64,000 bases of DNA from Planctomycetota bacterium (GCA_025993795.1 JAMQHL010000020.1:12471-76470), one strand, 5' to 3'; positions 397 to 26,234 are shown, counted from the first letter of the stretch. Made by a program: numbers and translations. Notes: generated by a model not told the origin, from the letters alone.

Positions 397-804
397 CTAC
401 GGGGCGATGAGCACCATGACCTGACTTGGGGCGATCTGCGCGCCGGCGGGCATGTTGGCGTTGTTGCCGTTGTGGCCGCAGATTGCAGTAATCGTGCACT
501 GGCCCTTGCCCTCGGTCTTCACCTTCATGCTGGCCTTCTTGAACACGATCTTGCCCTTGAACTGGTTGCTGATCATGCCGCCCAGGCTGCCGGCTTCGTC
601 GCCGCTGGACATGGGGATCTCGCTGCCCATCAGGATCGCCGGCTGGCTCATCACCTTGACCTTGGTGGAAACCTTGGTGGCCTGCATGCACATGCCCAAG
701 TTGGGAAAAGGCGTCGGAATCGGCGGTGCAGGCGGTGCGGGCACCTTGCACACGTCGGGTACGCCCAGGCACTGGCCGCTCATTTTTGTCGATGCTGGAA
801 GCAT
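397..804 (-). CDS. PAAR-like protein, DUF4150 family, no C-terminal toxin extension (135 aa)
   Basis: N-terminus GVPDVCKVPAPPAPPIPTPFPN matches the DUF4150 signature (PDVCKTP...P.PYPN). GAGGA RBS lies before ATG 804. It is the last gene of the vgrG module. Confidence 0.8.
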   Translation of the reverse strand: MLPASTKMSGQCLGVPDVCKVPAPPAPPIPTPFPNLGMCMQATKVSTKVKVMSQPAILMGSEIPMSSGDEAGSLGGMISNQFKGKIVFKKASMKVKTEGKGQCTITAICGHNGNNANMPAGAQIAPSQVMVLIAP

Positions 805-858
805 ACTGTCCTCGCGATCTCTTGTTCAAGCTTCGGTTCGTGTGAGCGAACTGTCTGC

Positions 859-1383
859 CTATCCAAGGTGAATGCGTTCACCGTTCAGGCGCACGTCTTT
901 CTTGGCTTTCACGATGTGCCTTTCGGCGCGCTCGATGTTCGCGCCGTCCACCTGCACTTTGCGACGGCCGGCCTTGATCGACGCGAGGTCTTTCACCCAG
1001 CGCATCGCGTTAGTGACCTTCTCGCTCAGCGTGCGGGCGACAAGTTCATATTTGCCGGCAGTCACCTTTACCTCAGGTGCCTGCATCTCGATACGCTCGC
1101 CACTGCTGAACTGGAAACCACCGCGGGCGTGGAAGTGGGCATTGGCCGGGAAGTGCAGGCTCATGTCCCCCTGCGCATGCAGCACGCCGATGATGTACGC
1201 GGGCGCATCGCCGATCACCAGCACGACGTCGCCCGCCTGCGGCGCGTAGGGAAACGCCAGCGCATTCTGCGCGCTTGTTTCAACGCCTTCCCGCAATACG
1301 GTGATGTCAGCACCTTCGACCTTGTGCACTATGGCCGGCCCCAGCTTGGTGCCCTGCATAGTTTCAGTCACAGTTTCATACAT
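859..1383 (-). CDS. DUF3540-like protein (174 aa)
   Basis: Size, the pattern A..A..Y.P..GD.VLV...A.YIIGVL, and its position between a pentapeptide protein and DUF4150 match the DUF3540 family seen in vgrG islands. AGGAGA RBS is present. Confidence 0.6.
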   Translation of the reverse strand: MYETVTETMQGTKLGPAIVHKVEGADITVLREGVETSAQNALAFPYAPQAGDVVLVIGDAPAYIIGVLHAQGDMSLHFPANAHFHARGGFQFSSGERIEMQAPEVKVTAGKYELVARTLSEKVTNAMRWVKDLASIKAGRRKVQVDGANIERAERHIVKAKKDVRLNGERIHLG

Positions 1384-1404
1384 GGCTCGTCTCCTTGATT
1401 CCGC

Positions 1405-3324
1405 CTACTTCTGCGGCTTCCAGTTCTCTGCCTCAAGCTTGTCGGCATCGGTGCGCTTGACCTGCTTCAGGTTGGCCCTGGCAAAGTTCGCGCCGTCATC
1501 GCGCGAGCCGTGCAAGTCGGCCCCCAGCAGGTCTGCACCGCTGAAATCCGTAAACTGCAGGTTGGCATGGGTGAACATGGCGTACTGAGCGACTGCATTG
1601 GTAAAGCGCGCCTTCTGCGCATTGAGCCGGTCCATGAACGTCTCGCGGATGTCGGTGCCATCGAACTGCGCCTCGGTAGCGTTAGCACCCGGGAAAGCCG
1701 CCATGTGCAGCATCGCACCGCTGAACACCGCACCCTTTACGTTCGCGTTCTCAAAGTTTGCGCCGGTCAACTGCGCCGACTTGAGCACGGCCTTTTCCAG
1801 ATTCGCGTTCTTGAACGCAGCCTGCGTCAGTTCAGACCCCGACAAGTCGATGCCGGCGAGACCCGCGTCTTCGAAATCACAAAGCGTGAAACGCGATTGC
1901 GGCAGTTTCATGCCCGCCATGTTCACTGCGCGAAACTCGCAGCGCTCGTACCTGCCGCCGGCCAAGCCGACTTCGCGCAGGTCGCTGTCAGCAAAGCTAA
2001 CGCCGGTCAACTTCGCGTCTTGAAAGTCTGCACCCTTGAGGACGGCGTCAGACACATTCGACTCGTCCAGGGTCGCGCCGCGAAACGACGCGCCGGTTGC
2101 GTTGGCACCCACCAGTGTGGCACCCGAAAGGTCGGCCTGTGAAAGGTCCGCGCCGGACAGGTCGGCTGTGCTGAAGTCGGCATCGTTCAGTCGCGCACCG
2201 CGCAGCTTGGCACCGCGCAGGTTCGCGCCGTTGAAGTCGGCCCCAATCAGCGAGAAGCCCTCGAAGACAAAGCCCTGCAAGTCCACGCCATCAAACGACG
2301 CGCCGTTCAATGTGCTGCCGCTGAGCTTGAGGCCCTTGACGGTGGCGCCCGAAAACCGCGCGTCGGTCAATTCGCAATTGCTGAGGTCAAACCCGGAAAG
2401 GTCACAGTTCTCCAGCACAGCCGCGCCCAGCTTGACGCCCGCCAGCTTTGTGCCCGCCAGCTTTGCCGCATCGAAGATCGCGCCGGTGCAGTCGCTGCCG
2501 CTGAAGTCAGCGTCGGTCAGGTCTGCGTCGCGAAAGTGGACATCCTGCGCGGCACAGCCTTTAAGGTTCGCGCCCGTCAGCAGCGCACCGCGAAACGTAC
2601 TGCCCTTGAGGGCGCGGTTCGAGAAATCCGCGCCCGTAAGGTTTGCCTCGCCGTAACTGCCGCTGATCGTCGCCGGGAAGTCACGCGCGCCAGCCCAATC
2701 GCTGCTTTCCGCAATCAGGTTCTCCATGCGCGCGCTGGTCAGGGTCGCGCCGCGCAGCGTGGTTGAAATCATGACGGCACCGGTCAGGTTTGCCGATGAA
2801 AGGTTGCAGCCATCCATGACGGCCATGTTCAGGCCCGCATCGGTAAGGTCTGCGCCGCTGAAGTCAGCGTCCTGCAGGTTGCCGGTGTCAAATGACGAGT
2901 TCACAGCCCTGGCACCAGTGAACCTGGCGCCCTGCAGCTGAGCGCCCGTCAACGCGATCTCCGTCAGGTCCGCGTTGCTGAAGTCGGCGCGCGGGGCGCG
3001 TACTCCCGCCATGCCGGCCGCCGACAGATTCGCCTCGTGCAGTTGGGCACCGTCCAGGCTGACATCGGAAAAGACCGCGCCGGCAAGGTTTGCGTTGCGC
3101 AGGTTGCAGCCCTTGAGATTGCAGGACGCGAACAGGGCACCTGACAGGTCCGCGCGCGACAGGTCAGCGCCCTGAAGATTGATACCGATCAAACGCACGC
3201 CCGCAAGCCTGGCGCCCGCCAGCTTCGCCCCCGCGAGGTTGAGACTGTCGACCTGTGCGCCCGCCGGCAGCCCGCCCCCGAGGGCGTGGTCGATGAACGA
3301 CTTGTTGTCAGCAATCTGCGTCAT
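1405..3324 (-). CDS. Pentapeptide-repeat protein, 639 aa, nearly wall-to-wall A(D/N)LxX repeats
   Basis: Translation is continuous 5-residue repeats (ADLSG, ANLTG, AKLAG...), with one break near aa 205-225. The start overlaps the upstream stop as ATGA (3321-3324). Confidence 0.9.
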   Translation of the reverse strand: MTQIADNKSFIDHALGGGLPAGAQVDSLNLAGAKLAGARLAGVRLIGINLQGADLSRADLSGALFASCNLKGCNLRNANLAGAVFSDVSLDGAQLHEANLSAAGMAGVRAPRADFSNADLTEIALTGAQLQGARFTGARAVNSSFDTGNLQDADFSGADLTDAGLNMAVMDGCNLSSANLTGAVMISTTLRGATLTSARMENLIAESSDWAGARDFPATISGSYGEANLTGADFSNRALKGSTFRGALLTGANLKGCAAQDVHFRDADLTDADFSGSDCTGAIFDAAKLAGTKLAGVKLGAAVLENCDLSGFDLSNCELTDARFSGATVKGLKLSGSTLNGASFDGVDLQGFVFEGFSLIGADFNGANLRGAKLRGARLNDADFSTADLSGADLSQADLSGATLVGANATGASFRGATLDESNVSDAVLKGADFQDAKLTGVSFADSDLREVGLAGGRYERCEFRAVNMAGMKLPQSRFTLCDFEDAGLAGIDLSGSELTQAAFKNANLEKAVLKSAQLTGANFENANVKGAVFSGAMLHMAAFPGANATEAQFDGTDIRETFMDRLNAQKARFTNAVAQYAMFTHANLQFTDFSGADLLGADLHGSRDDGANFARANLKQVKRTDADKLEAENWKPQK

Positions 3325-5603
3325 TTTTCCAGCTTGGTCATCTTCAGGTTCGCGCCACCGAAATCGGCGCCCTTGGTCTTGGCGTCAAGGAACTCGGCTG
3401 CGTAGAAGTTCGACGCCACCAGCGACGCGCCGCGCAGGTCAGCCTGCTCGAGCAGCGCCTGGTGAAAGTTTGCGTTGCCGGCCTGGGCGCTGGACAGGTT
3501 GGCTTTGCGCAGCATCGCGCCGGAAAGGTCGGCCCCGAAGAAGCGCGCACCGCTGAGGTCGCTGAACTGGAACTGTGCATCTTTCAGGTTGCATTCGCTG
3601 AAGTCGGCGCCTTTGAGCGTGCTGTTTTCCCACACGCTGCCGGCGCCATTGGCGCCCTTGCACTTCGCGTTCGTGAAGTTGCTTTTCTCGCCGCCGCGGA
3701 AACCGGAAAGATCCGCCTTCTCAAACTTCGCGCCGCTGGCATCAACCTGGTCGAAACCGGAGTCCTTGAGACTTGCCCCGGTGAAATCCGCGCCCTGCAA
3801 CTGCGCGCCGGTGAAGACGCCGGCTTCAAGCTTTGCGCCGGTAAACACGGCGTTGGCAGCCTTGAGACCCGCACATATGGCGTCTTTGCCCTGCGCTCCT
3901 GCAAAACTTGCGCCTTCGGCGACGGCGTCGATCATCATGACATCGTCAAGCTTGGCATTGTCCAGTTTCGCGCCGCTGAGGTCCGCGCCGCTGAAATCAG
4001 CGTCCGTCAGGTCAGCGCCGGTCAGGTCTGCACCTGCCAGCTTGGCGCCGATAAACGACACGCCCTTGAGTTTGGCGCCCGCCAGGTTCGCGCCGCTGAG
4101 TTGCGCATCGTTGAAGTAACAATCCGTCAGGTCGGCACCGGCCAGGTCTTGCGACTCAAGCTCGCTGCCGCTGAAGTCTCCGCCCTGGGCCTCGCGCGAC
4201 TTCAGCAGGCCCATCAGGCCCTTGGTGTCGGTGGGCTTGGGCGCCTTGCCGGACTGTGCCAGCTTCATGGCGGCCTTGACGTCGGGGTCGGCCAGGATGT
4301 CAAGGTCGGCTGCGCTGATGCGTTTGGGCAGCCCCATCTCGGCGGCCAGCGGCGATGCCAGCAGCTTGTCAATCATCGACTTCAGGTCGCCCGGGCTTGC
4401 GGGTTTGGTTGCAGCCTTGGCAATGTTCAGTTCGCTGCCGATGCTGGCCTGCGCTTGAGACTCGGCCTTGGCTGCGTAGCCGTCCACCAGTTTTTCAATC
4501 CCGGAAATCTCGGCTTCCAGTTGCTTGGCGCGCTCAGCGCGGTGCGCCTTGGTTTCAACTTCTTCGGGCGCTTCGTCGCCCTCTTGCAGGGTGTCAAACA
4601 ACGGCACCAGTGCCTCCAGGGGCTGGGCCTTGCCCACGGGCTCGCTGACCACCAGCACATCGCGACACTCAAGCCAATCGCTGTCGCTGACGTCTGCGAT
4701 GCCGCGCCAGACGAGGTACATCTGCGACTTGTCGGCATCGACGTGCAGGGTGTCTAGGTTCATCGGCACTTCGCGAACGCGGGCAGGTTCGCTCTCGTTG
4801 CCTTCGCGCAGCAGCACACGCACACGCAGTCCCGGCAGGCGCGTCTTGAGCACCGCGTGATCCGCGTGAAGATTCGTCAGCTCAACCTCTTCGTCTCCGC
4901 GCAGGAAGCCTTCCAGCTGCTGGTCGGCAGGTGCCGCGTTGAAGTAGGTCCAGTCAAAGTCCTTGGGGAACGCCGGGAAGCGCTCTTTCAGCCACTTGTT
5001 GTCGTAGGTGCCCAGCTTGCCCGTGCGCAACTTCCAGGTGCGGTGAACGGGGCCGAAGCCGGCGGGCTGTGGCTTATCGCCATAGCCGGTAATCAGGCTG
5101 GTCGGCAATTCGATGTTGGGCAGGATGCCGTCTTTGGCACCCTTGCCGGCGGGGTTGGCGCCGTGCTTTGGGCCACCAAAAGCGTTGGCCCATGTCAGCG
5201 GCAGCTTCGTGAACGGCTCAATCTCTCCGACCTTGGCGAACACCATGCCCTTATGCCACACGCGATTGCCGATGCAGGCCAGCGACTTTGACCACCCGCC
5301 GACGCGAAAACTGACCGGGCAGGTCGTGGAGGCCTTGCCGCCGGGCACGTGGCAGGTGCCCGTGAGCAGCAGGTCAGCGCGCGGCTTGAACAGGGCCAGG
5401 TCGGCGTCGTACAGGCATTCCGGCACTTTGGCTTTGCTGAGCACGTCGCCCTCAAGGGCGGGTTGCGGCTCAAGCGGCTGGCACACTCCGCCGTGGACCA
5501 TGTGGAAGGCGGCCTTAACCACAAGGCTGGCCGTGTGGGCCGGGAAGTTGACCCGGCCCATCATCGGCGCGAAAGCAAAGGTTGTGCGGTTGGCGATTTC
5601 CAC
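3321..5603 (-). CDS. DUF2169 N-terminal domain fused to C-terminal pentapeptide repeats (760 aa)
   Basis: The N-terminal ~330 aa (MEIANRTTFAFAP...VVKAAF...) resemble DUF2169 T6SS adaptor proteins. Pentapeptide repeats run from about aa 470 to the end. GTG start has a GAGGGAG RBS, 21 nt after the vgrG stop. Confidence 0.8.
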   Translation of the reverse strand: MEIANRTTFAFAPMMGRVNFPAHTASLVVKAAFHMVHGGVCQPLEPQPALEGDVLSKAKVPECLYDADLALFKPRADLLLTGTCHVPGGKASTTCPVSFRVGGWSKSLACIGNRVWHKGMVFAKVGEIEPFTKLPLTWANAFGGPKHGANPAGKGAKDGILPNIELPTSLITGYGDKPQPAGFGPVHRTWKLRTGKLGTYDNKWLKERFPAFPKDFDWTYFNAAPADQQLEGFLRGDEEVELTNLHADHAVLKTRLPGLRVRVLLREGNESEPARVREVPMNLDTLHVDADKSQMYLVWRGIADVSDSDWLECRDVLVVSEPVGKAQPLEALVPLFDTLQEGDEAPEEVETKAHRAERAKQLEAEISGIEKLVDGYAAKAESQAQASIGSELNIAKAATKPASPGDLKSMIDKLLASPLAAEMGLPKRISAADLDILADPDVKAAMKLAQSGKAPKPTDTKGLMGLLKSREAQGGDFSGSELESQDLAGADLTDCYFNDAQLSGANLAGAKLKGVSFIGAKLAGADLTGADLTDADFSGADLSGAKLDNAKLDDVMMIDAVAEGASFAGAQGKDAICAGLKAANAVFTGAKLEAGVFTGAQLQGADFTGASLKDSGFDQVDASGAKFEKADLSGFRGGEKSNFTNAKCKGANGAGSVWENSTLKGADFSECNLKDAQFQFSDLSGARFFGADLSGAMLRKANLSSAQAGNANFHQALLEQADLRGASLVASNFYAAEFLDAKTKGADFGGANLKMTKLEK

Positions 5604-5624
5604 AAACTCCCTCGTGGTGATGCG

Positions 5625-8027
5625 TTACTTGTACTGGCCGCCGGGCGTGCCCTTGCATTGCAGGTTGCCCATCGACTTGATGGTCATCTGCGGCGCCTTG
5701 AGGCCTATGCCACTGCCGGTGACCTTTTCGCTGGAGCCGCCGTTGACGATCTTGATGCCGGCGGGCGTCATCTCGATCTTGCTGGCGCCGCACTTGAGCA
5801 CCAGCTTGGTCATGGCATCGATTTCGATTTCTCCGGTCAGGGACTCGAGTTTGCAGTTGCCCAGTGCCTGGGCCTCCCACTTCTTGGCGACCTTGAAGGT
5901 CCAGTCGTCTTTGCCGACACTGAACGACTTGGACTTGTCCAGCTTGATACTCTTGCCCCAAGTGGCGGAAACGCCGTCGCCGCGAGTGATGCTGGCCGAC
6001 AAGGCATACGCGGCCTTCAGCTCCGCGCCGACCTGGATGGTCGCGGTTGCCCCGACACTGGTTGCAAATTTGGCGGCGAAGTTGGTGACGTTGTAATCGC
6101 CGATCTTCAGGTCCCAGGATGCCCCGAGCGTCTTGGCTGTGGAGTCACCGGCGATATTTTCTTCTTTCTTGCCGGTGACCTCGATACCCATGTCGCCGCC
6201 GACCTTGATGTTGTATTCGCCGCCCGTGGTCAGGCGCATGCCGTCAGCGTCTTTGGCTTTGCCGTCGGTGCCTTCGCCTGCCGACTTGCCGATGCGGATC
6301 TGGCAGCCGCTGACCTTGGCCTTGAGAATGATGTTCTCATTGCCCTTGTCGATGATGATCTTCTGGTCGTCGGCGCCCGAACTGATTTCAATTTTCTCCG
6401 AGCCGTCGGTGCCGTCGATGAACAGCTTGTTGATCTGGCTGGTGGTGAACAACGAAATCTGCGGCGCGCCCTGTGTGTCGTCCAGAGTGAGCGTGTTGCC
6501 GACAGGCGTGACAATCGTGTTGTGCGTGTGGTTGTGCTGGTGCACGACACTGGTGTTCTGTTCGTTGTAAACGGCGCCGGAGATGATGGGGCGGTCAGGG
6601 TCGCCATCGATGTGGGTGATCAGCACCTCAGCGCCCTTGAGCAGTGGAAAGTGCATTCCCTGGCTTGGACCGGCGTAGCTTTCAGCTTTGCGCACCCAGC
6701 GCGAGGCATTGCCGTCGCCGGCGTCGCCGCGGTCGAGGGGCAGGCGAACCTTGTAGCGGCCCTTGTCATCGATCTGGGCGTAGGGTGTGCCGCCGTCTTC
6801 GCCGTCAATCACGCCGTGCAGCACGCCCTTGATGCTGGGCCAGGCCGTGACGCAGGGCGGACGGAATGTCTTGGATTTCGGTATCGCAAGAAAGGTGTTG
6901 GTGTAAGTCGCGCCGGAAGCGTTGCCGCTGCCCAGTGCCACTGACTGAGTCGCGGTGTGCGCAATCTCGACCAGCAGATACTCCTGGTAGAAGGCGTCAC
7001 TGAGCCCGTTGTTAGTCTTTTCCTTGGCCTCGTCAGGCGCCTTGAGCTTGAAGACCATGCCGGCACGAAAGCCTCGGGCGTCCGCAGTGCCGCGGTACTC
7101 AAGTTCGCGGCAGTTGATTTCCTCGGCGCGGACGTCGGCGAGTTTCTTGCCTTCGCCCTTGTCGCTGTAGTGGTTGTTGAACTCGTAGACCGTGCCGATG
7201 CCCTTGGCGCTGACTGTGGACTTGCAGTCAAGCTTGTCCTTGGGCGTGCGCCAGTTGTAGTCGTTGAGGACGACTTCCTTGGGCAGTTGTTTCTGCGTGC
7301 AGGAAATCGCGGTCACCACTTCTTCCTTGAACCAGTCGTCGGTGACATCTTCTGAGTCCGATCCTTCTTTCTGCGCGTTGTTGCCCTGCTGCGGCTTGTA
7401 CCGGAACTCGTTGTCACCGATCAGCGTGCCGTAGCCCTCAGAGGTGCCGCGGAAGACGACTTTTTCCTCATCGTCGTCCTGGGTGAAGTAGTAGTAGATG
7501 CCTTCGTGCTCAAGCCAGCGGTGGATGAAGTCGAAGTCCGACTCTTCGTACTGCACGATGTACTCGCGCTCTTTGTAGCCGCTGAGTTTGTCGATATCGC
7601 AGGTGACGCCGTATTCGTCGCAGATCTTCTTGACCATGTCGGGCACGGTCGTGTCCTGGAAGATGCGGCTGTTGTGCGACAGCGAGAGCTTCCACAGGCG
7701 CGGCACCAGCAGTGCGCGGTACTGGACGGCATCGAGGTGCCGGCCCGCCTGCTCAATCGACTCGATGATGCCGTGGATTTTGACAGTTGTGGCCGCGCGT
7801 TTGTCGCTGCCGGCCTGTTTGACGCCCTGCTTGATGGCGATGTACGCGGGCTTGTGGATGATCGACTCAAGGTCGATGTCCTTGTCCTCGCTGGCCAGTT
7901 CCAGAAAAAACTGGTAGGGCTTGCTGATGCACTCTGAGCCGGAAAGCGCGGTGATCTCAAGCTTTCCGTCTTCCAGTGCGTCAGAATGAAACTTCATGAC
8001 CTGTGACGCTGCGATTTCCGTTGCCAT
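5625..8027 (-). CDS. vgrG: T6SS spike protein VgrG (TssI)
   Basis: Typical VgrG gp27/gp5-like sequence (FFLELASE..., YIVQYEESDFDFIHRWLEHEGIYYYF, beta-helical C-terminus). I prefer ATG at 8027 (MATEIAAS...) with an AGGAG RBS over the track start at 8114. Confidence 0.93.
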   Translation of the reverse strand: MATEIAASQVMKFHSDALEDGKLEITALSGSECISKPYQFFLELASEDKDIDLESIIHKPAYIAIKQGVKQAGSDKRAATTVKIHGIIESIEQAGRHLDAVQYRALLVPRLWKLSLSHNSRIFQDTTVPDMVKKICDEYGVTCDIDKLSGYKEREYIVQYEESDFDFIHRWLEHEGIYYYFTQDDDEEKVVFRGTSEGYGTLIGDNEFRYKPQQGNNAQKEGSDSEDVTDDWFKEEVVTAISCTQKQLPKEVVLNDYNWRTPKDKLDCKSTVSAKGIGTVYEFNNHYSDKGEGKKLADVRAEEINCRELEYRGTADARGFRAGMVFKLKAPDEAKEKTNNGLSDAFYQEYLLVEIAHTATQSVALGSGNASGATYTNTFLAIPKSKTFRPPCVTAWPSIKGVLHGVIDGEDGGTPYAQIDDKGRYKVRLPLDRGDAGDGNASRWVRKAESYAGPSQGMHFPLLKGAEVLITHIDGDPDRPIISGAVYNEQNTSVVHQHNHTHNTIVTPVGNTLTLDDTQGAPQISLFTTSQINKLFIDGTDGSEKIEISSGADDQKIIIDKGNENIILKAKVSGCQIRIGKSAGEGTDGKAKDADGMRLTTGGEYNIKVGGDMGIEVTGKKEENIAGDSTAKTLGASWDLKIGDYNVTNFAAKFATSVGATATIQVGAELKAAYALSASITRGDGVSATWGKSIKLDKSKSFSVGKDDWTFKVAKKWEAQALGNCKLESLTGEIEIDAMTKLVLKCGASKIEMTPAGIKIVNGGSSEKVTGSGIGLKAPQMTIKSMGNLQCKGTPGGQYK

Positions 8028-8124: not shown

Positions 8125-8565
8125 TTACTGCTCTTCGGGTAGTCCGTTCACTACCCGCCGAATATTGCCCTTCAGGTGTTCGCAATTGAAGTTGATCAGC
8201 AGGCCGAGCCTCAGGCCGGACAGTTTCAGATATGTGATTACCTGCTTGAAGTGAATCTTGCCGAGTTCATCTACCGACTTGAGTTCAATAAGCACCACAC
8301 CGTTGACTATCACGTCTGCCCGGTAGCCTGCACCGTGCTGCATGCCATCAAACTTCACCGGGATCGAAACTTCACTCTCGACTGCAAAGCCTTGCTTGAT
8401 CAACAGGTAGACCAGCACCGTGCGATACGCGGACTCAAGCAAGCCAGGCCCCAATTCGCTGTGAATGCGATAGGCGCGATTAATGACCTCCCTGGCGATT
8501 CGATCTTCTTCGGTTGTTGCCATGGCAGTTCCTTTGCGTACTTGGCGGCCTTTGCGCGAGATCAT
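8125..8565 (-). CDS. GxxExxY protein (PD-(D/E)XK nuclease-like family), inserted between clpV and vgrG
   Basis: Contains GPGLLESAYRTVL (the GxxExxY motif) and the overall family pattern. The long start ATG at 8565 overlaps the clpV stop as ATGA. An alternative start M15 at 8523 gives a 132-aa protein of typical family length. Confidence 0.8.
   Translation of the reverse strand: MISRKGRQVRKGTAMATTEEDRIAREVINRAYRIHSELGPGLLESAYRTVLVYLLIKQGFAVESEVSIPVKFDGMQHGAGYRADVIVNGVVLIELKSVDELGKIHFKQVITYLKLSGLRLGLLINFNCEHLKGNIRRVVNGLPEEQ
8543..8556. repeat. Right arm of the inverted repeat bracketing the GxxExxY gene
   Basis: tggcggcctttgcg is the reverse complement of 8110-8123. A cctttgcg unit is repeated at 8531-8538 and 8549-8556. 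Confidence 0.8.
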
Positions 8566-11339
8566 GCCCCGAACGCGAATGTAAAGTCACCCGTGTCGCC
8601 AATCCCTACCTTCATGCTTTCGGGCAGGTCTCCTTCACTCATCTTCTGCAGTAACTGCGTGCTCATCTGCGGCAGCAGGTTGCCGCGAATGATGTGGTCG
8701 ATGTTTCGAGCACCGGTTTCAACTTCCTTGCAGCGCTCGGCGATGGCCTCGGTCACCTTGGGATCGAACTTCAGGTCCATTCCATGCGTGGTGTGCATGC
8801 GCTTCACAATCTTGTTCAGCTTCAGGTCCGTGATCATCTTCATCGCTGCCACGTCGATCGTGAAGAACGGCAGAATGCTCATGCGCGCCAGCAGCGCCGG
8901 CTTGAAGTGCGCGCTCAGCACGGGGCGGATCAGGCTGACCAGTTCATTCATGTCGGGCCGGTCGCCGTCGCTGCAAGCCTCGGTGATGATGTCTGTCGCC
9001 AGGTTGCTGGTCAGGAACATCACCGTGTTCTTGAAGTCCACTTCGCGGCCTTCGCCGTCGTTCAGCACGCCCTTGTCAAACACCTGGTAGAACAGGTTCA
9101 TCACGTCCAGGTCGGCCTTCTCAACCTCGTCCAGCAGCACCACGCTGTAGGGGCGCTGCCGCACGGCCTCGGTCAACTGGCCGCCTTCACCATATCCGAC
9201 GTAGCCCGGGGGGCTTCCGATCAGGCGGCTGACCGTGTGCTTCTCCTGGAACTCGGACATGTTCACAGCCGTCATAAAGCGCTCGCCGCCAAACAGCAGG
9301 TCAGCGACCGCAAGCGCTGTTTCCGTCTTGCCGGTACCGCTGGGGCCAACGAACAGGAATACGCCCATCGGCGCTTCCGGGTTACCCAGCCCCGCCTTGG
9401 CTGCGCGCACGCCGGTGGCGATTGCGGTCATGACGTGGTCCTGGCCCTTCACGCGCTTGCGCAGCTCGTCTTCCATGGTCAGAAGCTGTGCGGCCTGGTC
9501 TTTGACCATGTTGCCGACGGGGATGCCGGTCCAGTCGCCGATGACCTTGGCAACGACTTCGCTGGTGACTTCAACGGGCACGAGCGGGTCCTTGCCCTGC
9601 ATGTCGCGCAGGGTCGCCAGTTCTTTCTCGAACATGGCCTTGAGCGCGACCGGGTCGTCCGGCAGGTCGTACCTGGGAGCTTCTTCCTTAGCGTCTTCCT
9701 TCTTCCTGGACTTGGTTTCCCTGGACTTGGTCCTGGTATCCTTGCTTGCCTGCTTGCCCGTCGCTTGCGCTTCCGCCTTCGCGGTTGCTTCGGCGGACGT
9801 GCCGGGCTTCCTGGGCTCCATCAGCTCGTTGAGCCTGGTGCGGACTGCTACTACCTTGTGGGCCTGGTCGCGTTCGCCGATCCAGCGTTTCTTGAATGCT
9901 TCGGCCTTTGTGCCCGTCTCGATGATGCGCTGCTCGATCTCGGCGATTTGCTCGGGGTCGTTGTGGCCGCCGGTCTCGGCGTCGCGCTTGAGCGCCCCCA
10001 GCGTGCGCTTGTCGGTCTCGATGCTGCGTTCAAGGTCTTGCAACTCGGCGGGCTTGGCCAGAAACGCTACCTTCACCCGCGCCGCGGCCGTGTCCACCAG
10101 GTCGATGCCCTTGTCGGGCTGCTGGCGACCGGCAATGTAGCGGCTGCCCATTTCTGCTGCTGCCACCAGTGCTTCGTCGCGGATGACAACGCCGTGGGAC
10201 TTTTCATAGTTGGCGCGCAAGCCGCGCAGCATGACGGTGGTGAGCTCTGGGCTTGGCTCGTCCAGCTTGACCAGCTGGAAGCGGCGGGCGAGCGCGGCGT
10301 CCTTTTCGAAGTACTTCTTGTACTCAGACCACGTAGTAGCAGCGATGGTGCGCAGCTCGCCGCGTGCGAGCGCGGGCTTCAGCAACTGGCCGGCGTCGCC
10401 TGTGCCTGCGGCGCCGCCCGCGCCAATCAACGTGTGCGCTTCGTCAATGAACAGGATGATCGGCTTGGGGCTGGCTTTGATCTCTTCGATCACACCCTTG
10501 AGGCGGTTCTCGAACTCGCCCTTGACCGAGGCGCCGGCTTGCAGCAGGCCGACGTCCAAGCCCACCAGTTCAACGTTGCGCAGCATCTCGGGCACATCGC
10601 CCTCGACGATGCGGATGGCGAGGCCTTCGACAACGGCGCTCTTGCCGACTCCGGGGTCGCCCACGCAGATCGGGTTATTCTTGCGGCGACGGGCCAGGAT
10701 ATCGACCATCTGGCGGATCTCGCGGTCGCGCCCGAACACCGGGTCAAGCTTGCCCTGCCGGGCGCGCTCGGTGAAGTTCTGGCAGAAGCGCTGCAGCGCG
10801 GTGCCGTCTTTGGTCGGCTCCGCGCCGGGGGCACCGGTTGCGGCCTTGGCGGCTGCCGCTGCGGTCTCGGTGCTGCCGCTGACGATCTGCGCGAAGTTGC
10901 GCTTCAACTCCGTCTTGGGGATTTCGCTGAGCACGTCGATGTAGTCGCCGACGGCCAGCCGGCCCGGGCTGTCCAGCAGCGCCTCAAGCAGGTTGCCGCT
11001 GCGAATCTCGCCCTGGCCGTGGTCGATGCTGCCGATGACCCAGCCAATCTGGATCCACTGTGTAAGCGTCGGGCTGAACACGGGGCGGCCGGAATTGCCG
11101 GTCTTGAGCTGGTCAAGGTCGCGCGTCAGGGTCTTCAGCACGCGGCCGGTGTCGATGCTGAACTTGCCAAGAATCTGCTGGATGTCGGCGGCAGGGTCTT
11201 CCACCAGCGCCTGCAGCATATGCTCGACGGTGACTTCATAATTCGTGCGTGACACGCAATTTCCTGCCGCGGCTTCCAGCGCGCGGGTGCAGAAGCGGTT
11301 CAAACGGCTTACCAGCGCCTTGAGATCAACCTCGACCAT
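8562..11339 (-). CDS. clpV: T6SS AAA+ ATPase ClpV (TssH)
   Basis: 925 aa with a ClpV-type N-domain and two Walker A motifs (GDPGVGKSAV, GPSGTGKTETA). Confidence 0.95.
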   Translation of the reverse strand: MVEVDLKALVSRLNRFCTRALEAAAGNCVSRTNYEVTVEHMLQALVEDPAADIQQILGKFSIDTGRVLKTLTRDLDQLKTGNSGRPVFSPTLTQWIQIGWVIGSIDHGQGEIRSGNLLEALLDSPGRLAVGDYIDVLSEIPKTELKRNFAQIVSGSTETAAAAAKAATGAPGAEPTKDGTALQRFCQNFTERARQGKLDPVFGRDREIRQMVDILARRRKNNPICVGDPGVGKSAVVEGLAIRIVEGDVPEMLRNVELVGLDVGLLQAGASVKGEFENRLKGVIEEIKASPKPIILFIDEAHTLIGAGGAAGTGDAGQLLKPALARGELRTIAATTWSEYKKYFEKDAALARRFQLVKLDEPSPELTTVMLRGLRANYEKSHGVVIRDEALVAAAEMGSRYIAGRQQPDKGIDLVDTAAARVKVAFLAKPAELQDLERSIETDKRTLGALKRDAETGGHNDPEQIAEIEQRIIETGTKAEAFKKRWIGERDQAHKVVAVRTRLNELMEPRKPGTSAEATAKAEAQATGKQASKDTRTKSRETKSRKKEDAKEEAPRYDLPDDPVALKAMFEKELATLRDMQGKDPLVPVEVTSEVVAKVIGDWTGIPVGNMVKDQAAQLLTMEDELRKRVKGQDHVMTAIATGVRAAKAGLGNPEAPMGVFLFVGPSGTGKTETALAVADLLFGGERFMTAVNMSEFQEKHTVSRLIGSPPGYVGYGEGGQLTEAVRQRPYSVVLLDEVEKADLDVMNLFYQVFDKGVLNDGEGREVDFKNTVMFLTSNLATDIITEACSDGDRPDMNELVSLIRPVLSAHFKPALLARMSILPFFTIDVAAMKMITDLKLNKIVKRMHTTHGMDLKFDPKVTEAIAERCKEVETGARNIDHIIRGNLLPQMSTQLLQKMSEGDLPESMKVGIGDTGDFTFAFGA

Positions 11340-12354
11340 GTTTCCATCCTTTGAAGCGGAACGTCACGCTGCGGTCTTCGCCGCGGCTCTCGCCAAGCCA
11401 GCTGCACCAGCCAAGGCGAGTTCTAGGGGAATTCAGTTGCGCGCGCGGCACTTCATCGCCGCGCAGAATCAGCGTCAGCTCGTACTCAAGCCCGTCGCTG
11501 TTCAGCATATCGACCAGCTCACGAAGCTGTTCCTGGTCGGGCTCAGTGGGCATCAGCGCCAGGTAGTCGTCCACATGCATCGGGCCCATACGCACTTCAA
11601 AGCTGCCCGAGAGGTCGAACACCTCGCTGCCAAGCATCGCATCGCCACCCAGCGCGCAGTTGCGGACACCCAGTGTGCTGCACTGATCGGCTGGAATCGC
11701 CGCCCAGGCACCCTTGCACTGCTCAATGGCCACGGGACTTTCCGGATAATGCTCCGCCAGCAGCGCCCGAAAACTCTCGGCGCTGCGCGGCTGCTGCGTC
11801 AGAAGCCCGGCATATTCAAGCAACCGGCCCACGGGCAGAGCGCCCTGCGGCATGTGCGCCAGGTCTGCGCCCACCATGGCCAGCAGGCGTCGCGAGAAAT
11901 AGTCGTGGCCCAGCGCGTCGTACTGCACCGTGTGCCGGTACTTTTCCCAGACGCGATAGAACAGGCTGAGCAGGCGGTGGTGGAAAATGTCGATAAAGCC
12001 GCGCACCAGCCCGTCAAGCTCGTCCTCACGCAGGAAGTCTTCGGTGTAATGGCTCGGCAGTGGTGAGCTGGTGCCGTACAGGCCCATGAAGGCTACGTTG
12101 ACGCGGTAGCGCATCGTGCCGTCGGCTTGTTCGATCTCTTCGATGCTCTCGACGTCGCTGAGGGGAAAGTCCATATCCAGCACGGGGCGCAGCCGGATAC
12201 GTTCGCGCTCAGGCGGACCCTGGTGCCCGACGCGAGGGGCGCCGCCGGACATGCCCTGCAACAGACGAACCGCCTGGAAGAACGAGTAGTACCTCGCGTT
12301 CGCAAGCAGGTCTGTCGTTACAGGATCGCGCGTTTGCCAATCCGTGCCGGCCAC
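11326..12354 (-). CDS. tssG: T6SS baseplate protein TssG
   Basis: The N-terminus ...YYSFFQAVRLLQ... is typical of TssG. Position after tssF fits. Confidence 0.9.
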   Translation of the reverse strand: MAGTDWQTRDPVTTDLLANARYYSFFQAVRLLQGMSGGAPRVGHQGPPERERIRLRPVLDMDFPLSDVESIEEIEQADGTMRYRVNVAFMGLYGTSSPLPSHYTEDFLREDELDGLVRGFIDIFHHRLLSLFYRVWEKYRHTVQYDALGHDYFSRRLLAMVGADLAHMPQGALPVGRLLEYAGLLTQQPRSAESFRALLAEHYPESPVAIEQCKGAWAAIPADQCSTLGVRNCALGGDAMLGSEVFDLSGSFEVRMGPMHVDDYLALMPTEPDQEQLRELVDMLNSDGLEYELTLILRGDEVPRAQLNSPRTRLGWCSWLGESRGEDRSVTFRFKGWKHGRG

Positions 12355-14066
12355 TGGAACACCTCTGCGTGTTTTGCGCCCGTCACCTGCAGGCGCGAAT
12401 AAGCATTCAGGCTTACATACTGCGCGAAGAACTCGTTCAGCACAGACGCGAAGAAGAACACTTCGCCGTCACCGCCCAGCAATTCTTCGTCTAGTGTCAG
12501 GTCCACTTCAATGCCGCGCACCGGAAAACCGTCCAGCAGGCGCGACGCAGGCTTGGCTGCCACGGCGCTGATGCCCTCCAGCAACCGCGAGTGTGCCTGC
12601 TCTGTCTGGCGATCGATGCGCGCGCGAAAGTTGTACAGCGAGATCACGGAGCGCAGCGCATCGACACTCAGCAGCGACATGTAGTTCAGCGTCAGGTGCG
12701 AGATCAGACGCCAGTGCAGGTCGTCGCTCATCGGCGGAGGCACGGTGGCAGTCGGTCGTGCGAGATTGCGGTACTTGGCAAAGATTGGGCTGCTCTGGGT
12801 CTTCACCGAGACGTCGCCGGCATCAAGCCGTGTCGGCATCTGGCCGTTGGTTGCCAGCAGCTCGACGCTGACGGTTTCAATACTCGGTCGCGACTCCGGG
12901 TTCTGGGGGTCGATGAAGCTGAGCATCATGTCCGAGCCGTCGCCGGTGACCGATTCCTGGCGCCGCACGTGATAGAATAGCTCGTCGCGGCGCGTGCGAC
13001 GCGCCAGCTTGAACTGGGGCCGAAACTCGATTTCTTTGGCGGTGCCAAGCTCCAGCCCGTACACGCGCTCGACCGCGAATATCTCGTAGTGCCGCGGGTT
13101 CTGGCCCGCCGGGCGCAGCGTGTACTCGGTGCGGCCGCGCTGTACCCGGATCGGGTCGGCGTCGTGCTTGAACAAATTCACAGCCGGCACGCAGTTCAGC
13201 AGGATGTTGGCTTTGCTGACCGGCGGCATGTTTTCGGGCAGGCGCGTGAACTCGAAGTCGACGGTGAACAGCTTCTCGGTTTCAAACCCCACGACGCCGT
13301 CGAGGCCCGAGAGTTCGATGAACATGAACTTCTGCGGTGCCGCAAAGTACTCCTGTAGCAGGCGAAAGCCCTGGAAGCTGGGTCCCGGGCCTGACAGCAC
13401 TGCTTCGCTTTCATCAAAGCCAACGGGCCGGACGGCGCTTGCCGGCAACTCAAACTTGCGCTTGCCATCGGCGCCATCGCCCTGGCGAACAATAACCTTC
13501 TTGAGATAGCGCAGTATGGACACATACAGGCCGCGCGTGACAACCTGCTCACCGGCCAGGAACAACCGCAGGTTGCGAATGCCCAGCTTATCAAGCGGGA
13601 CCTTGCCCGGCGCCTCAAGCCTCAGGCGCAGACGTGCCGGGGCTTCGCGCCGCAGCTCTACATCCCGGACTTCGATCGGCAGCAAGTCAAAGTCATAGCA
13701 GGTGCGAAAGCGGCTGCGGGTGCCGTCCACGGGCGAGCTGTCGATTTCGATGCCGCGGGCGAGGCGCTTGAGCTCGGCGGTGGCTTTGTTGGCGTGGTCA
13801 AACTGAATGATGCAGGTAGACGGGATGGGCCGCAGGTAGTGCGGCTCGATCATCTCCATCAATGCGTGCGTGAACTCCGGCAACTCGTCGTCGAGCTTCT
13901 GGCGCAGCTTCCCGGTAAGGAATGCGAAGCCTTCCAGCATGCGCTCGACGTCGGGGTCGCTGCCGGCCTCGGCGAGAAAGCGGGCGGCTTCCGGGTTCGC
14001 GTCTGCGAACTCGCGCCCCATCTCGCGCAGGAAAACCAACTCGTCCTGGTAATACTTGTTGAACAC
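12318..14066 (-). CDS. tssF: T6SS baseplate protein TssF
   Basis: N-terminus MFNKYYQDELVFLREMGREFADANP is the canonical TssF start. The start codon is GTG. No purine-rich SD lies upstream; CCTCCTG repeats sit there instead. Confidence 0.93.
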   Translation of the reverse strand: MFNKYYQDELVFLREMGREFADANPEAARFLAEAGSDPDVERMLEGFAFLTGKLRQKLDDELPEFTHALMEMIEPHYLRPIPSTCIIQFDHANKATAELKRLARGIEIDSSPVDGTRSRFRTCYDFDLLPIEVRDVELRREAPARLRLRLEAPGKVPLDKLGIRNLRLFLAGEQVVTRGLYVSILRYLKKVIVRQGDGADGKRKFELPASAVRPVGFDESEAVLSGPGPSFQGFRLLQEYFAAPQKFMFIELSGLDGVVGFETEKLFTVDFEFTRLPENMPPVSKANILLNCVPAVNLFKHDADPIRVQRGRTEYTLRPAGQNPRHYEIFAVERVYGLELGTAKEIEFRPQFKLARRTRRDELFYHVRRQESVTGDGSDMMLSFIDPQNPESRPSIETVSVELLATNGQMPTRLDAGDVSVKTQSSPIFAKYRNLARPTATVPPPMSDDLHWRLISHLTLNYMSLLSVDALRSVISLYNFRARIDRQTEQAHSRLLEGISAVAAKPASRLLDGFPVRGIEVDLTLDEELLGGDGEVFFFASVLNEFFAQYVSLNAYSRLQVTGAKHAEVFQWPARIGKRAIL

Positions 14067-14073
14067 GGCAGTT

Positions 14074-14108
14074 CAGGAGGCAGGAAGCAGGAGGCAGGAG
14101 GCAGGAGG
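14074..14108. repeat. Heptamer tandem repeat (CAGGAGG-like x5), arm 1 flanking the four-helix-bundle gene
   Basis: Reads caggagg caggaag caggagg caggagg caggagg on the plus strand. On the minus-strand mRNA it reads CCUCCUG x5 and ends 7 nt before the tssF GTG. Confidence 0.9.
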
Positions 14109-14157
14109 TCCCGGATTCGTATGTTGTCTGGAAGTACGACTTCGGGCCTGCCCGTCC

Positions 14158-14583
14158 CTACTCTTCTTCTTGTGCGTTCTCCCGCCTTTCTTGTTGGGCC
14201 TCTCGCTCGACACTGGCAATCAATCCGCCGAGCATGCGACCAATCTCTTGAAAGCTCTCAATCATTCCGCTCGCAACATCAACTGACATGAACTTCTGGC
14301 GCGCCGCAATCTCTACCGCCGTCTCCACTTCCGCTGCTGAACCGTCTGCGTATCGCAGAAACCGCAGGTAGTCCTGCTTGCGTGACTTGCGGCGATAACC
14401 TTCCGCAATGTTCATGGGCACCGAACTGGCTGCCCGCCGCAGCTGGCTGGTCAGGCCGAGTACTTCTGCGCGAGGAAACCCACGAGTGACTGCATAAACC
14501 TGGTCTGTGGCGTCCATGCCCTTTTGCCACACTTTGAGCCCGCGAAACCCAGCTGCGCCAAGGTTATGCAACTCTCCGCTCAT
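14158..14583 (-). CDS. Four-helix-bundle protein (23S rRNA intervening-sequence / Avd-like family), inserted between tssE and tssF
   Basis: FRGLKVWQKGMDA...FPRAE...LTSQLRRAASSVPMNIAEGYRRKSRKQDYLRFLRYADGSAAEVET matches the family signature. Confidence 0.85.
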   Translation of the reverse strand: MSGELHNLGAAGFRGLKVWQKGMDATDQVYAVTRGFPRAEVLGLTSQLRRAASSVPMNIAEGYRRKSRKQDYLRFLRYADGSAAEVETAVEIAARQKFMSVDVASGMIESFQEIGRMLGGLIASVEREAQQERRENAQEEE

Positions 14584-14591
14584 GGCCTTTC

Positions 14592-14623
14592 CCTGCCTCC
14601 TGCCTCCTGCGACCTGCCTCCTG
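14592..14623. repeat. Heptamer tandem repeat (CCTCCTG-like), arm 2, inverted relative to 14074-14108
   Basis: Reads cctg cctcctg cctcctg cgacctg cctcctg on the plus strand. On the mRNA it reads CAGGAGG-type units ending 8 nt before the four-helix gene ATG and starting 5 nt after the tssE stop. Confidence 0.9.
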
Positions 14624-14628
14624 AGCTC

Positions 14629-15045
14629 CTACGCCAGCAGATTCACATGGCCTGCCGGGTCGAGCAGCGTATCGAAACTCACGTGCGTCCCGTCTTTGCT
14701 CGTCGCCAGCCTGGCGGTGATCTGGAAGCGCACCGCCAGCTTGTTGTCATCGCTTTCAATCTGCATGACCTGCACGTCTTTCAGGCGCGGCTCATAGCGT
14801 TCGATGCACATGCGAATCGCCTTCTGCATCGTGCTTAGAGATTCCGGATATGCCTGGGCGACTTCTGCCGGTGACGCAATGCCGTAGTCCATCTGCGCCG
14901 GGGCCTGGCCGGACCGCGTGTTCAGAATGCGGGCCAGATTGCCAAGGATTGAGCGAAGCAGGGCGCCGGTGTCTTCTTCCAGCGTGTGGCTGCTTACTGC
15001 CTCGGGGTTCCGTAACCGCTCGAACAGAGTTCGTTGCTGAAACAC
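14629..15045 (-). CDS. tssE: T6SS baseplate protein TssE (gp25-like)
   Basis: ...TLFERLRNPE...SILGNLARILNTR...YGI...RMCIERYEPRL... is typical of TssE. The track ORF extends to 15201 and overlaps hcp. I prefer GTG at 15045 (VFQQRTLFERL), but the start is uncertain. Confidence 0.85.
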   Translation of the reverse strand: MFQQRTLFERLRNPEAVSSHTLEEDTGALLRSILGNLARILNTRSGQAPAQMDYGIASPAEVAQAYPESLSTMQKAIRMCIERYEPRLKDVQVMQIESDDNKLAVRFQITARLATSKDGTHVSFDTLLDPAGHVNLLA

Positions 15046-15137
15046 CGCAGATGGCCTTTCGCCGCAAGGGGCGGGCAGGGCTCGCCTGCCGACATGTCGC
15101 CGGCAGGCCACCCAGGAGCCGCCCTTGCAGGCAGTGT

Positions 15138-15617
15138 TTACGCGTCCGGCTTGCTGAAGTCGAAGGTCGTCGGAACCTGTCCACCCGACAGCCACGTCCA
15201 CTCCACGATACGGTAGGCAAAACCGACGTTTTCCATGTGCGAGAAAGTCTCGTTGGACTCGGGGCCGGTGGGCATGTACGGGCGGGCGTAGACGATGCGG
15301 CAGTCCTTGAGCTTGATGCCGAAGTACTTCTCGCTGCCGCCGTCCTTGGGGTTGTCGCGCCAGAACTCAAGCTCGACCTCTCCAATCTTCTTCTTCTTTG
15401 CAAGGGCCTCAAAAATCTTCGGGCTGGCCTTGTCGATTTCCTTCGTCACGAGGCACTCGCCGTGCACCGGCTCGCCACGGCCTTTGTTCTCGCGCATGTC
15501 GAAGGGGTACTTCATCTCGTGGCTGAAGCCGCGAACGTCACACCAGTCGGCATGGTCGCCATCGCTGCTGCTGCCGGGCATATCCGCAATCTTCATGAAC
15601 ACTTTCATGCTGGCCAT
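15138..15617 (-). CDS. hcp: T6SS tube protein Hcp (TssD)
   Basis: 159 aa with Hcp-family features (MKIADMPG..., DKASPKIFEALAKKKKIGEVELEF, ...ENVGFAYRIVEWTW). Confidence 0.92.
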   Translation of the reverse strand: MASMKVFMKIADMPGSSSDGDHADWCDVRGFSHEMKYPFDMRENKGRGEPVHGECLVTKEIDKASPKIFEALAKKKKIGEVELEFWRDNPKDGGSEKYFGIKLKDCRIVYARPYMPTGPESNETFSHMENVGFAYRIVEWTWLSGGQVPTTFDFSKPDA

Positions 15618-15736
15618 GGTTATTCTCCTGGGTTCTAAATCGCCTATTTCTTACAAGTTGATCGATTCTCTTGTCTCGGTTGACTCGTCCGCGACACCAG
15701 AACCTTACCCCGTGGCAAAAATATCGACTAGACACG

Positions 15737-15755
15737 ATTGCAGAAAACTTTCCGG
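15737..15755 (-). promoter_or_regulatory. Candidate sigma-54 (-24/-12) promoter upstream of hcp
   Basis: The minus strand reads cGGaaagttttcTGCAa. GG-to-GC spacing is correct and the -12 TGCA matches. About 8 of 12 consensus positions match. It lies about 120 nt upstream of the hcp ATG in an AT-rich gap. Confidence 0.25.
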
Positions 15756-16004
15756 CATAAAAAACATCAAATTATCGTACACAGTAACTGCACAAAGCTC
15801 ACGAACGTCGGCGGCACGCTGCCAGAAATGCGCCTTCCGGGCTGCTCACAAGTTGCCCGTCTCGGCGCCGCGGTGCATGGGCGGGGCTGAGTTGCGTTGC
15901 GCGGCCCCGCACTTTGCCAGACGTTTGCCGGTCGATCTGATCTTGGTCTGCCGACCCCTTGCCTGTTTTCGTGGGCTTGGGGGCCCTGTCTCCTGCATCG
16001 CCAC

Positions 16005-17483: not shown

Positions 17484-17563
17484 CGGTACGTCTCCGTTCG
17501 TGGGTTGGCGCCATGGGCGCCCCCCGGCGCTGTCACCGGGGCTGCTGTAGTTCTGGCCCTGGC

Positions 17564-18061: not shown

Positions 18062-18098
18062 GGCTTACTCCCTGTTTCGTGGCGGGCAGATTCGCCCG

Positions 18099-23611: not shown

Positions 23612-23679
23612 TGCTTTTCCCCTGGCTGGTTCTGAATTCTGCTCAAATCACAACGTCACAAGGCTTGATGCGGAAGCGT

Positions 23680-24360: not shown

Positions 24361-24362
24361 GC

Positions 24363-26216: not shown

Positions 26217-26234
26217 GACACGGCTCCCTGCTGG

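Follow-up and report, generated by a model that had tools for sequence, protein, structure and literature searches.

We analysed a window of 64,000 nucleotides from Planctomycetota bacterium (GCA_025993795.1 JAMQHL010000020.1:12471-76470), in which five co-directional open reading frames (ORFs) on the minus strand, between positions 397 and 8027, form the 3′ end of a complete type VI secretion system (T6SS) operon that runs from 28378 down to 397. In order of transcription, the five genes encode a long VgrG, a DUF2169 protein fused to a pentapeptide-repeat (PPR) domain, a stand-alone PPR protein, a DUF3540 protein, and a small PAAR-like protein of the DUF4150 or "PIPY" type (Table 1). Judged by these domains and their order, the genes very probably constitute a Class III Tvp accessory system, known in Burkholderia as tagAB-tagB-tagC-tagD and corresponding to DUF2169 synteny type C, and we use the names tvpAB, tvpB, tvpC, and paar for the four genes that follow vgrG.

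The module is tightly packed. The stop codon of vgrG lies 21 nt from the GTG start of tvpAB, and a GAGGGAG ribosome-binding site, read from the sequence, precedes this GTG. The tvpAB stop and the tvpB start overlap in an ATGA at 3321-3324, and gaps of 21 nt and 54 nt separate tvpB from tvpC and tvpC from paar, respectively. The GC content at third codon positions (GC3) was 0.75-0.81 across all five genes, and this value, together with a gene order that is kept in nine related genomes, led us to take the genes as real. The longest ORF of vgrG reaches a TTG at 8114, but the lengths of the orthologues (785-800 aa) favour the ATG at 8027, which was adopted as the start. An earlier account of this DNA, made from the sequence alone (the sequence-only reading), had described five ORFs in this order, and its coordinates, gaps, and overlap were all read back in the sequence. 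Pfam searches likewise returned the DUF2169, Pentapeptide, DUF3540, and DUF4150 domains that it had named. Its figure of about 900 residues of pentapeptide repeat proved fair, with ~820 residues in register inside a PPR region of ~930 residues, and its description of a DUF4150 protein without a C-terminal extension agrees with a domain that spans residues 12-116 of 135.

VgrG matched Phage_GPD (8e-66) and Phage_base_V in Pfam and scored 324 bits against the NCBIfam TssI/VgrG model. Residues 24-530 match VgrG structures in the Protein Data Bank (PDB), the N-terminal ~530 aa being a standard gp27/gp5 VgrG, and the C-terminal ~270 aa form an extended spike region that is beta-prism-like. A profile of the last 290 aa, built from eight VgrG orthologues, found only spike segments of VgrG, gp5, and phiKZ in the PDB, and in Pfam (E ≤ 1) the same segment gave only weak matches to DUF2345 and Gp5_trimer_C. 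No toxin domain was found in the VgrG tail by Pfam at this threshold, by NCBIfam, or by the PDB profile search. With 800 aa, the protein falls in the Class III range of 700-800 aa, and its extra length matches spike rather than toxin. The C-terminal nonapeptide KGTPGGQYK (5625-5654, minus strand) is identical in eight Planctomycetota orthologues whose tail identity falls to 45%, and is presumably the surface on which the PAAR-like cone docks; the conserved C-terminus of TvpC, RIHLG, is different. Two other loci, L003 (742-5783) and L009 (2711-5734), each carry two tandem vgrG genes ahead of tvpAB. In L009, a metagenome-assembled genome (MAG), the vgrG next to tvpAB extends ~225 aa past the usual end; the extension has no Pfam match, and the gene possibly encodes an evolved VgrG with a C-terminal domain of unassigned type.

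DUF2169 proteins reportedly act as adaptors that load DUF4150 effectors onto VgrG, as described for Tde2 in Agrobacterium tumefaciens. In TvpAB, the DUF2169 domain occupies residues 23-300 (DNA 4704-5537; Pfam 4e-87, 292.7 bits versus a cut-off of 25), and the N-terminal half of the protein matched the DUF2169 crystal structure 8VTH in a phmmer search (E 1.3e-18). When TvpAB is aligned with 8VTH, Y200 and W204 of its loop GTYDNKW fall on the F and W of GTFDDNW, the corresponding Vibrio loop; conservation at W204 is at least 90%, and 8 of 11 orthologues have Y at position 200. By this alignment, Y200 and W204 would correspond to F209 and W213 of the Vibrio protein, which contact PIPY (PMC11883445). 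The linker at ~301-470 has no Pfam match, and no toxin domain was found in TvpAB with Pfam on residues 331-471 (E ≤ 1), with the N-terminal half against the PDB, or with NCBIfam. The C-terminal PPR domain (~471-760, ~290 aa; DNA 3324-4193; Pfam Pentapeptide 1.5e-46) has 51 pentads in three blocks by register count. The same count gave 113 pentads in three register-continuous blocks for TvpB, which matched Pfam Pentapeptide in 17 stretches (1e-109, 357.6 bits) and also matched pentapeptide-repeat proteins in the PDB. Pentapeptide proteins fold as right-handed quadrilateral beta-helices, and some of them, such as MfpA and Qnr, which act on gyrase, mimic B-DNA. The isoelectric points (pI) of TvpB and of the TvpAB PPR domain are 4.8 and 4.5. 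Proteins of the TvpB type, of ~580-690 aa, are also present in other environmental DUF3540 loci.

TvpC, with a pI of 8.9, matched Pfam DUF3540 at 2e-21 (77.1 bits versus a cut-off of 27.9), a family for which phmmer found 733 clusters (50% identity) among 1.84 billion representatives. The closest relatives of TvpC come from Planctomycetota MAGs (94% identity in JADZFR01; 93% in JADJRK01/GCA_016712285.1), and a tblastn search with TvpC against 72,556 plasmids gave no match. An AlphaFold2 monomer model made from a 123-sequence alignment (predicted local distance difference test score 93.2) has a five-stranded OB-like barrel at residues 14-69, followed by ~105 residues (70-174) that are confidently placed but run as an extended chain, and it has no gp27 domain. 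The appearance of the extended half is consistent with prism strands that lack their trimer partners. When the model was compared with the PDB and BFVD by Foldseek, the best local matches were OB-fold domains (RsgA and HypC), and the only full-length alignments were to the R2 pyocin spike and the phage Mu spike. The predicted structure is consistent with, although it does not demonstrate, a VgrG-mimic fold composed of an OB-fold together with a beta-prism, without gp27.

The PAAR-like protein matched Tox-PAAR-like with 98.8 bits (2.5e-28). Since the DUF4150 domain fills the 135-aa protein, there is no effector extension, and the C-terminus comes directly after the domain in all Planctomycetota orthologues aligned. 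The protein contains the motif PIPTPFPN, of the form P-x-P-x-P-(F/Y)-P-N, in which PTPF is the equivalent of PIPY and whose prolines do not vary among 14 orthologues. The protein is basic (pI 9.4), and no toxin domain was found in it by Pfam, NCBIfam, or PDB search. Three more distant DUF3540 loci from metagenomes and MAGs, with short VgrGs of 475-490 aa nearby, encode a fusion of a PAAR-like domain to Peptidase_S41 (353-364 aa) directly after DUF3540 (L002, 2697-3770; L014, 8592-9653; L015, 8578-9672). These are Class III-like modules (DUF2169 with PPR, PPR, DUF3540) with an effector-bearing PAAR, which runs counter to the published impression that Class III goes with a toxin-less PAAR.

The order TssG-ClpV-VgrG-TvpAB-TvpB-TvpC-PAAR-SdaA was unchanged in nine Planctomycetota MAG loci, and tvpC adjoined paar in every related locus examined. 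Identity to the window proteins across the nine loci was 78-97% for ClpV, 41-96% for VgrG, 52-92% for TvpAB, 53-94% for TvpC, and 54-98% for PAAR, while TvpB was the fastest-evolving member of the module (41-89%). Orthologue sizes were stable (TvpAB 756-773 aa, TvpB 618-641 aa, TvpC 170-174 aa, and PAAR 135-136 aa); some longest-ORF values exceed these lengths and are overestimates. The conserved order, the identities, and the stable sizes indicate that the module is a vertically inherited, selected unit in this clade. A locus search with one TvpC alignment found Planctomycetota only, plus one Polyangiaceae locus; word- and pattern-based searches found relatives only from Planctomycetota, Myxococcota, and metagenomes, and a profile search of a 5.8-billion-protein set returned mostly metagenome proteins. 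The sequence-only reading had stated that the five-gene arrangement recurs in vgrG islands, which is correct both for the nine loci found here and for the published synteny type C. Domain identities, gene order, the aligned loop residues with the PIPY-type motif, the lack of detectable toxin domains, and conservation in nine genomes are direct observations on this locus and its relatives.

Upstream of the module, the operon is transcribed in the order of two FHA genes, tssJ, tssK, tssL, tssM, tagF, tssA, tssB, tssC, hcp, tssE, an insert encoding a 23S-rRNA-IVS protein, tssF, tssG, and clpV (Table 1). This insert and the PDDEXK_3 gene between clpV and vgrG are two small non-T6SS genes within the operon. 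The PDDEXK_3 gene has a GC3 of 0.64, compared to ~0.8 in its neighbours, is absent from nine of nine related Planctomycetota loci, where ~60 nt separate clpV from vgrG, and has the look of a recent insertion into the operon. As a nuclease effector it is an unlikely candidate: it is a small GxxExxY ORF, has lower GC3, lacks a partner gene, and is missing from all nine loci. Apart from these two inserts, the ORFs of at least 90 aa between 0.4 and 28.4 kb gave no toxin or immunity signature in profile scans, and all were T6SS core or accessory genes. The claim of the sequence-only reading that the 28-kb cluster has no toxin or immunity gene therefore holds as far as profiles can see, and a sensitive search for a conventional toxin in the five ORFs of the module, all five of which were run against NCBIfam, the finding that would have spoken against its idea of the pentapeptide proteins, yielded none. 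The cluster was taken to end after paar because the next gene encodes a serine dehydratase. From its constant position in the nine related genomes, sdaA may be co-transcribed with the T6SS operon.

Table 1. Positions of the genes and features in the 64,000-nt window.
Feature	Position	Strand	Size	Evidence or remark
serine dehydratase gene sdaA	1-372	-		~24 nt after paar; same position in all nine related genomes
paar-like (tagD, Paar1)	397-804	-	135 aa	Pfam Tox-PAAR-like (DUF4150, "PIPY" domain)
tvpC (tagC)	859-1383	-	174 aa	Pfam DUF3540
tvpB (tagB)	1405-3324	-	639 aa	Pfam Pentapeptide; stand-alone PPR protein
tvpAB (tagAB)	3321-5603	-	760 aa	Pfam DUF2169 and Pentapeptide
vgrG	5625-8027	-	800 aa	Pfam Phage_GPD and Phage_base_V
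PDDEXK_3/GxxExxY gene	8125-8565	-	146 aa	between clpV and vgrG; start overlaps clpV stop by 4 nt
rest of T6SS operon	8562-28378	-		Pfam scans, ORFs
23S-rRNA-IVS protein gene	14158-14583	-	141 aa	between tssF and tssE; four-helix bundle, weak bAvd-like match
two tandem FHA-domain paralogues	26235-28378	-		TagH/Fha-like, T6SS_FHA_C; first in operon
small sigma-70 region-4 helix-turn-helix ORF	28821-29168			divergent side of operon
putative membrane protein gene	29071-29643			divergent side; translation alone
anti-sigma factor gene	30044-31360			divergent side
ECF sigma factor gene	31398-32252			divergent side
sigma-54 enhancer-binding response regulator gene	41290-42744			
orphan second hcp	48680-49147	+	155 aa	T6SS_HCP 2e-13
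gene for a protein without Pfam match	49724-52138	+	804 aa	
alternative complex III-like respiratory set	54427-64000	+		multihaem cytochromes, molybdopterin/Fe-S, NrfD-like, ActD, cytochrome c

On the divergent side of the operon, three small unannotated ORFs at 28.6-30.0 kb were considered as an effector/immunity pair and rejected, since this region looks regulatory: one alternative frame encodes the sigma-70 region-4 helix-turn-helix, and an anti-sigma/ECF (extracytoplasmic function) sigma pair lies next to it. The sigma and anti-sigma genes (28633-32252) and the sigma-54 response regulator are candidate regulators of the cluster. The orphan hcp adjoins smpB, 20 kb from the cluster. The 804-aa protein is encoded ~600 bp downstream of it, past an oppositely oriented HPPK gene, and might be an Hcp-linked cargo or unrelated. 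The respiratory set that fills the end of the window is unrelated.

The sequence-only reading held that the role of the five-gene arrangement had not been established experimentally. This is out of date in view of published work (PMC13373197, PMC11883445, PMC8747328). The names tagAB, tagB, tagC, and tagD were introduced for Burkholderia by Shalom 2007, as cited in PMC6335564 and PMC13373197, and other relevant work includes Hopf 2014 and Kim 2021 (PMC8747328). Sachar et al. (JBC 2025) classed DUF2169 neighbourhoods by synteny, type C comprising a DUF2169-PPR fusion, a PPR gene, DUF3540, VgrG, and DUF4150 and accounting for ~37% of DUF2169 genes; they also solved the DUF2169 structure and found that DUF2169 binds a hydrophobic "PIPY" patch of DUF4150 and that DUF2169 is needed for VgrG export (PMC11883445). 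The window locus has a DUF2169 domain, a PPR fusion, a separate PPR protein directly downstream, DUF3540 rather than DUF6484, a small toxin-less DUF4150 protein, and a long VgrG, in the order vgrG-tvpAB-tvpB-tvpC-paar within a T6SS cluster.

Class III Tvp function was studied in Serratia marcescens Db10 by Monlezun, Earl & Coulthurst (EMBO J 2026; PMC13373197). In that strain, VgrG1-dependent killing needs each of TvpAB, TvpB, TvpC, and Paar1, as does the secretion of Hcp in the absence of VgrG2 (PMC13373197). In pull-downs, VgrG1 brings along TvpAB, TvpB, and Paar1 without TvpC, TvpC brings along the same three proteins without VgrG1, and the VgrG1 complex fails to form without TvpC (PMC13373197). 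TvpC is predicted to be a trimeric OB-fold with a beta-prism, a VgrG mimic without gp27, and point mutants of its interface are non-functional; neither TvpAB nor TvpB was ever detected among secreted proteins (PMC13373197). The authors note that Class III accompanies a small PAAR without an effector domain and propose that the bulky cap fills a cavity of the baseplate; Planctomycetota are among the phyla they list with TvpA (PMC13373197). In Burkholderia, TagAB-5 is indispensable for the secretion of Hcp-5 and is said not to be an effector (PMC6335564), TagAB, TagB, TagC, and TagD are needed for sheath assembly (PMC13584744), and in B. glumae attenuation followed mutation of the DUF2169 part, of the PPR part, and of the stand-alone PPR gene (PMC8747328). 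The sequence-only reading made the right domain call for DUF3540 but gave it no role, whereas its published role is that of the VgrG-mimicking template TvpC.

We propose a mechanism for the Planctomycetota locus whose steps would be carried over from Serratia marcescens and Burkholderia, as would the complexes, the hand-over from TvpC to VgrG, and the retention of the Tvp proteins. The small DUF4150/PIPY tip, with its hydrophobic patch, would be unable to seat itself alone on VgrG. The DUF2169 domain of TvpAB would grip the tip protein, and the PPR domain of TvpAB together with the all-PPR TvpB would close round it, like a sleeve and seat belt. This cap would first be assembled on a trimer of the DUF3540 protein TvpC, which would mimic the OB-fold and beta-prism of VgrG while lacking the gp27 hub. 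The long-prism VgrG would then displace TvpC, allowing polymerisation of the Hcp tube and the sheath, and the Tvp proteins would remain in the cell. Since there is no toxin on the PAAR protein, the bulky PPR cap is probably also what fills the baseplate cavity that would otherwise hold effector domains.

Several observations weigh against this transfer. The class was assigned by Pfam models and the domain definitions of the papers, and not by alignment with the Serratia or Burkholderia proteins. For TvpC, a VgrG-mimic fold is weakly supported: no Foldseek match reached E ≤ 0.001, the test being limited by a monomer model that leaves the C-terminal half as an extended chain. An hhalign comparison of the 123-sequence DUF3540 profile with residues 400-800 of the window VgrG gave a probability of 0.5%, by which a mimicry of VgrG by TvpC at the sequence level was rejected; any mimicry would be structural only. 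At 174 aa, TvpC is also ~40 aa shorter than Serratia TvpC, in which residue 210 lies near the tip, so that the template prism is probably shorter here, while TvpB is nearly twice as long as the 356-aa TagB of B. glumae; with either difference the geometry of the cap may differ. The last 26 residues of VgrG are hydrophilic (grand average of hydropathy -0.70), whereas the Serratia tail is hydrophobic, and Pfam scans that covered most of the window's large ORFs gave no DUF3192 (Vai1) match. Given the hydrophilic tail and the lack of a Vai1 gene, a "VgrG1-associated toxin" of the Serratia type is not evident here. Finally, the cluster has a single vgrG, whereas in the Serratia paper the Tvp-linked VgrG is one of at least two.

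The shorter TvpC and the weak match of its fold to spikes could instead point to a DUF2169 chaperone set that works without hand-over from TvpC, which would then be either a short spike in its own right or a regulator in competition with VgrG. The hand-over in Serratia was itself inferred and not observed, and TvpC interacted with TssK in a two-hybrid assay (PMC13373197). However, TvpC lacks the gp27 domain and so cannot nucleate the Hcp tube, the Serratia VgrG1 complex does not form without TvpC and the interface mutants are inactive (PMC13373197), and tvpC is kept beside paar in all related loci examined; we consider such a module quite improbable. A permanent spike extension or sheath, fired with VgrG-PAAR rather than left behind, would make use of the ~164 pentads, which could form a rigid beta-helix of ~200 Å. 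The Serratia PPR proteins do co-purify with VgrG1 and Paar1, and their release was not directly observed (PMC13373197). Nevertheless, they are missing from Serratia secretomes although VgrG1 is secreted, and in the predicted complex the tip is enclosed, so that a piercing device would be blunted (PMC13373197). The rapid divergence of TvpB is, moreover, unlike that of spike parts that bear load, VgrG and PAAR among them, and on this evidence a permanent extension is very improbable. The "rigid extension" of the sequence-only reading is not what the published data indicate, since the Tvp proteins are thought to leave before firing.

Extremely improbable, in our view, is a role of the PPR proteins as cargo delivered on the spike tip, either as DNA mimics like Qnr and MfpA or as host-targeting effectors like PipB2. 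Like DNA mimics, both PPR regions have an acidic composition; they match the Qnr, MfpA, PipB, and PipB2 models in part, and no other toxin is recognisable in the cluster. However, all of these scores lie below the curated cut-offs and reflect only the shared repeat: TvpB missed the NCBIfam equivalog cut-offs for Qnr (170.3 versus 240) and MfpA (130.5 versus 360) and the NCBIfam cut-offs for PipB2 (239.9 versus 354) and PipB (178.9 versus 274), and TvpAB scored 71 for Qnr and 54 for MfpA. Qnr, MfpA, and AlbG share with the window proteins the right-handed quadrilateral beta-helix repeat and the acidic composition, but they are ~200-aa dimers acting on gyrase, whereas here ~900 repeat residues are divided between two proteins encoded in a T6SS operon, and a PAAR chaperone is fused to one of the two. 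An equally good explanation of the acidity would be that it complements the basic PAAR and TvpC proteins. No immunity gene lies next to these genes, secretion of TvpAB and TvpB was never seen in Serratia (PMC13373197), and TagAB-5 is itself needed for Hcp secretion (PMC6335564). Of the alternatives offered by the sequence-only reading, the chaperone sleeve thus essentially matches the published mechanism, while a DNA-mimic cargo is disfavoured by the Serratia secretion data and by scores below the cut-offs.

With a Tvp cap as the preferred reading, the locus is a phylogenetically distant, Planctomycetota example of an accessory module that has already been described and whose role is known from other organisms. 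Genes otherwise annotated as hypothetical, PPR, or DUF proteins can be named tvpAB, tvpB, tvpC, and paar (tagAB-D) and treated as accessories of spike assembly, not as effectors. The example is deep-branching and non-proteobacterial, the whole Class III set is conserved in its clade, and its repeat mass is partitioned differently, which could help to define the essential features of the cap if such complexes come to be modelled or reconstituted. It also shows that neither an immunity gene of the Vai1 type nor a hydrophobic VgrG tail, as seen in Serratia, is general to Class III. A further, unlikely proposition is that in this Planctomycetota clade the Tvp-capped, toxin-less VgrG-PAAR is the only T6SS spike and the cap an obligatory core component of altered geometry, in which a stand-alone PPR belt almost twice the Burkholderia length would surround a TvpC template ~40 aa shorter than that of Serratia. 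If so, the cap would be an obligatory part of the machine instead of an adaptor for an alternative spike, and killing would have to rely entirely on cargo that is carried by Hcp or has escaped recognition, or on the spike itself as a toxin of a mechanical or membrane kind; in a bolder version, part of the PPR cap may exit with the spike.

Compared to the Class I and Class II Tvp systems (synteny B and A), such as Tap2-Tde2 of Agrobacterium, PA0096-PA0098-Tse7 of P. aeruginosa, and VP1398-VP1415 of V. parahaemolyticus (PMC11883445, PMC13373197), the window module has in common a DUF2169 domain that grips DUF4150/PIPY, with the putative contact loop and the proline motif both conserved. Those systems differ in having a single-domain DUF2169 protein, no PPR, DUF6484 or no TvpC, and PAAR-like domains fused to toxins. 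The Class III locus of Serratia Db10 encodes these five protein types in an identical order, with a long VgrG of 786 aa there and 800 aa here. In Serratia, vai1 (a DUF3192 immunity gene) and SMDB11_2246 lie between vgrG and tvpAB, whereas here tvpAB comes directly after vgrG; the two loci also differ in the character of the VgrG C-terminus, in the length of TvpC (at least 210 aa in Serratia), in the number of vgrG genes, with one in the cluster here, and in phylum, Serratia belonging to the Pseudomonadota. The Burkholderia T6SS-5 cluster contains an identical block, tssB-tssC-hcp-tssE-tssF-tssG-clpV-vgrG-tagAB-tagB-tagC-tagD (gene table of PMC6335564), and its TagD is likewise a PAAR-like protein of ~130 aa without an effector domain. 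VgrG-5 has a C-terminal fusogenic effector domain, whereas none is detectable in the window VgrG. In B. glumae (bglu_2g07420/07410), TagAB and TagB have 878 and 356 aa, compared to 760 and 639 aa here, indicating that repeat mass has moved from the fusion to the stand-alone protein in the Planctomycetota module.

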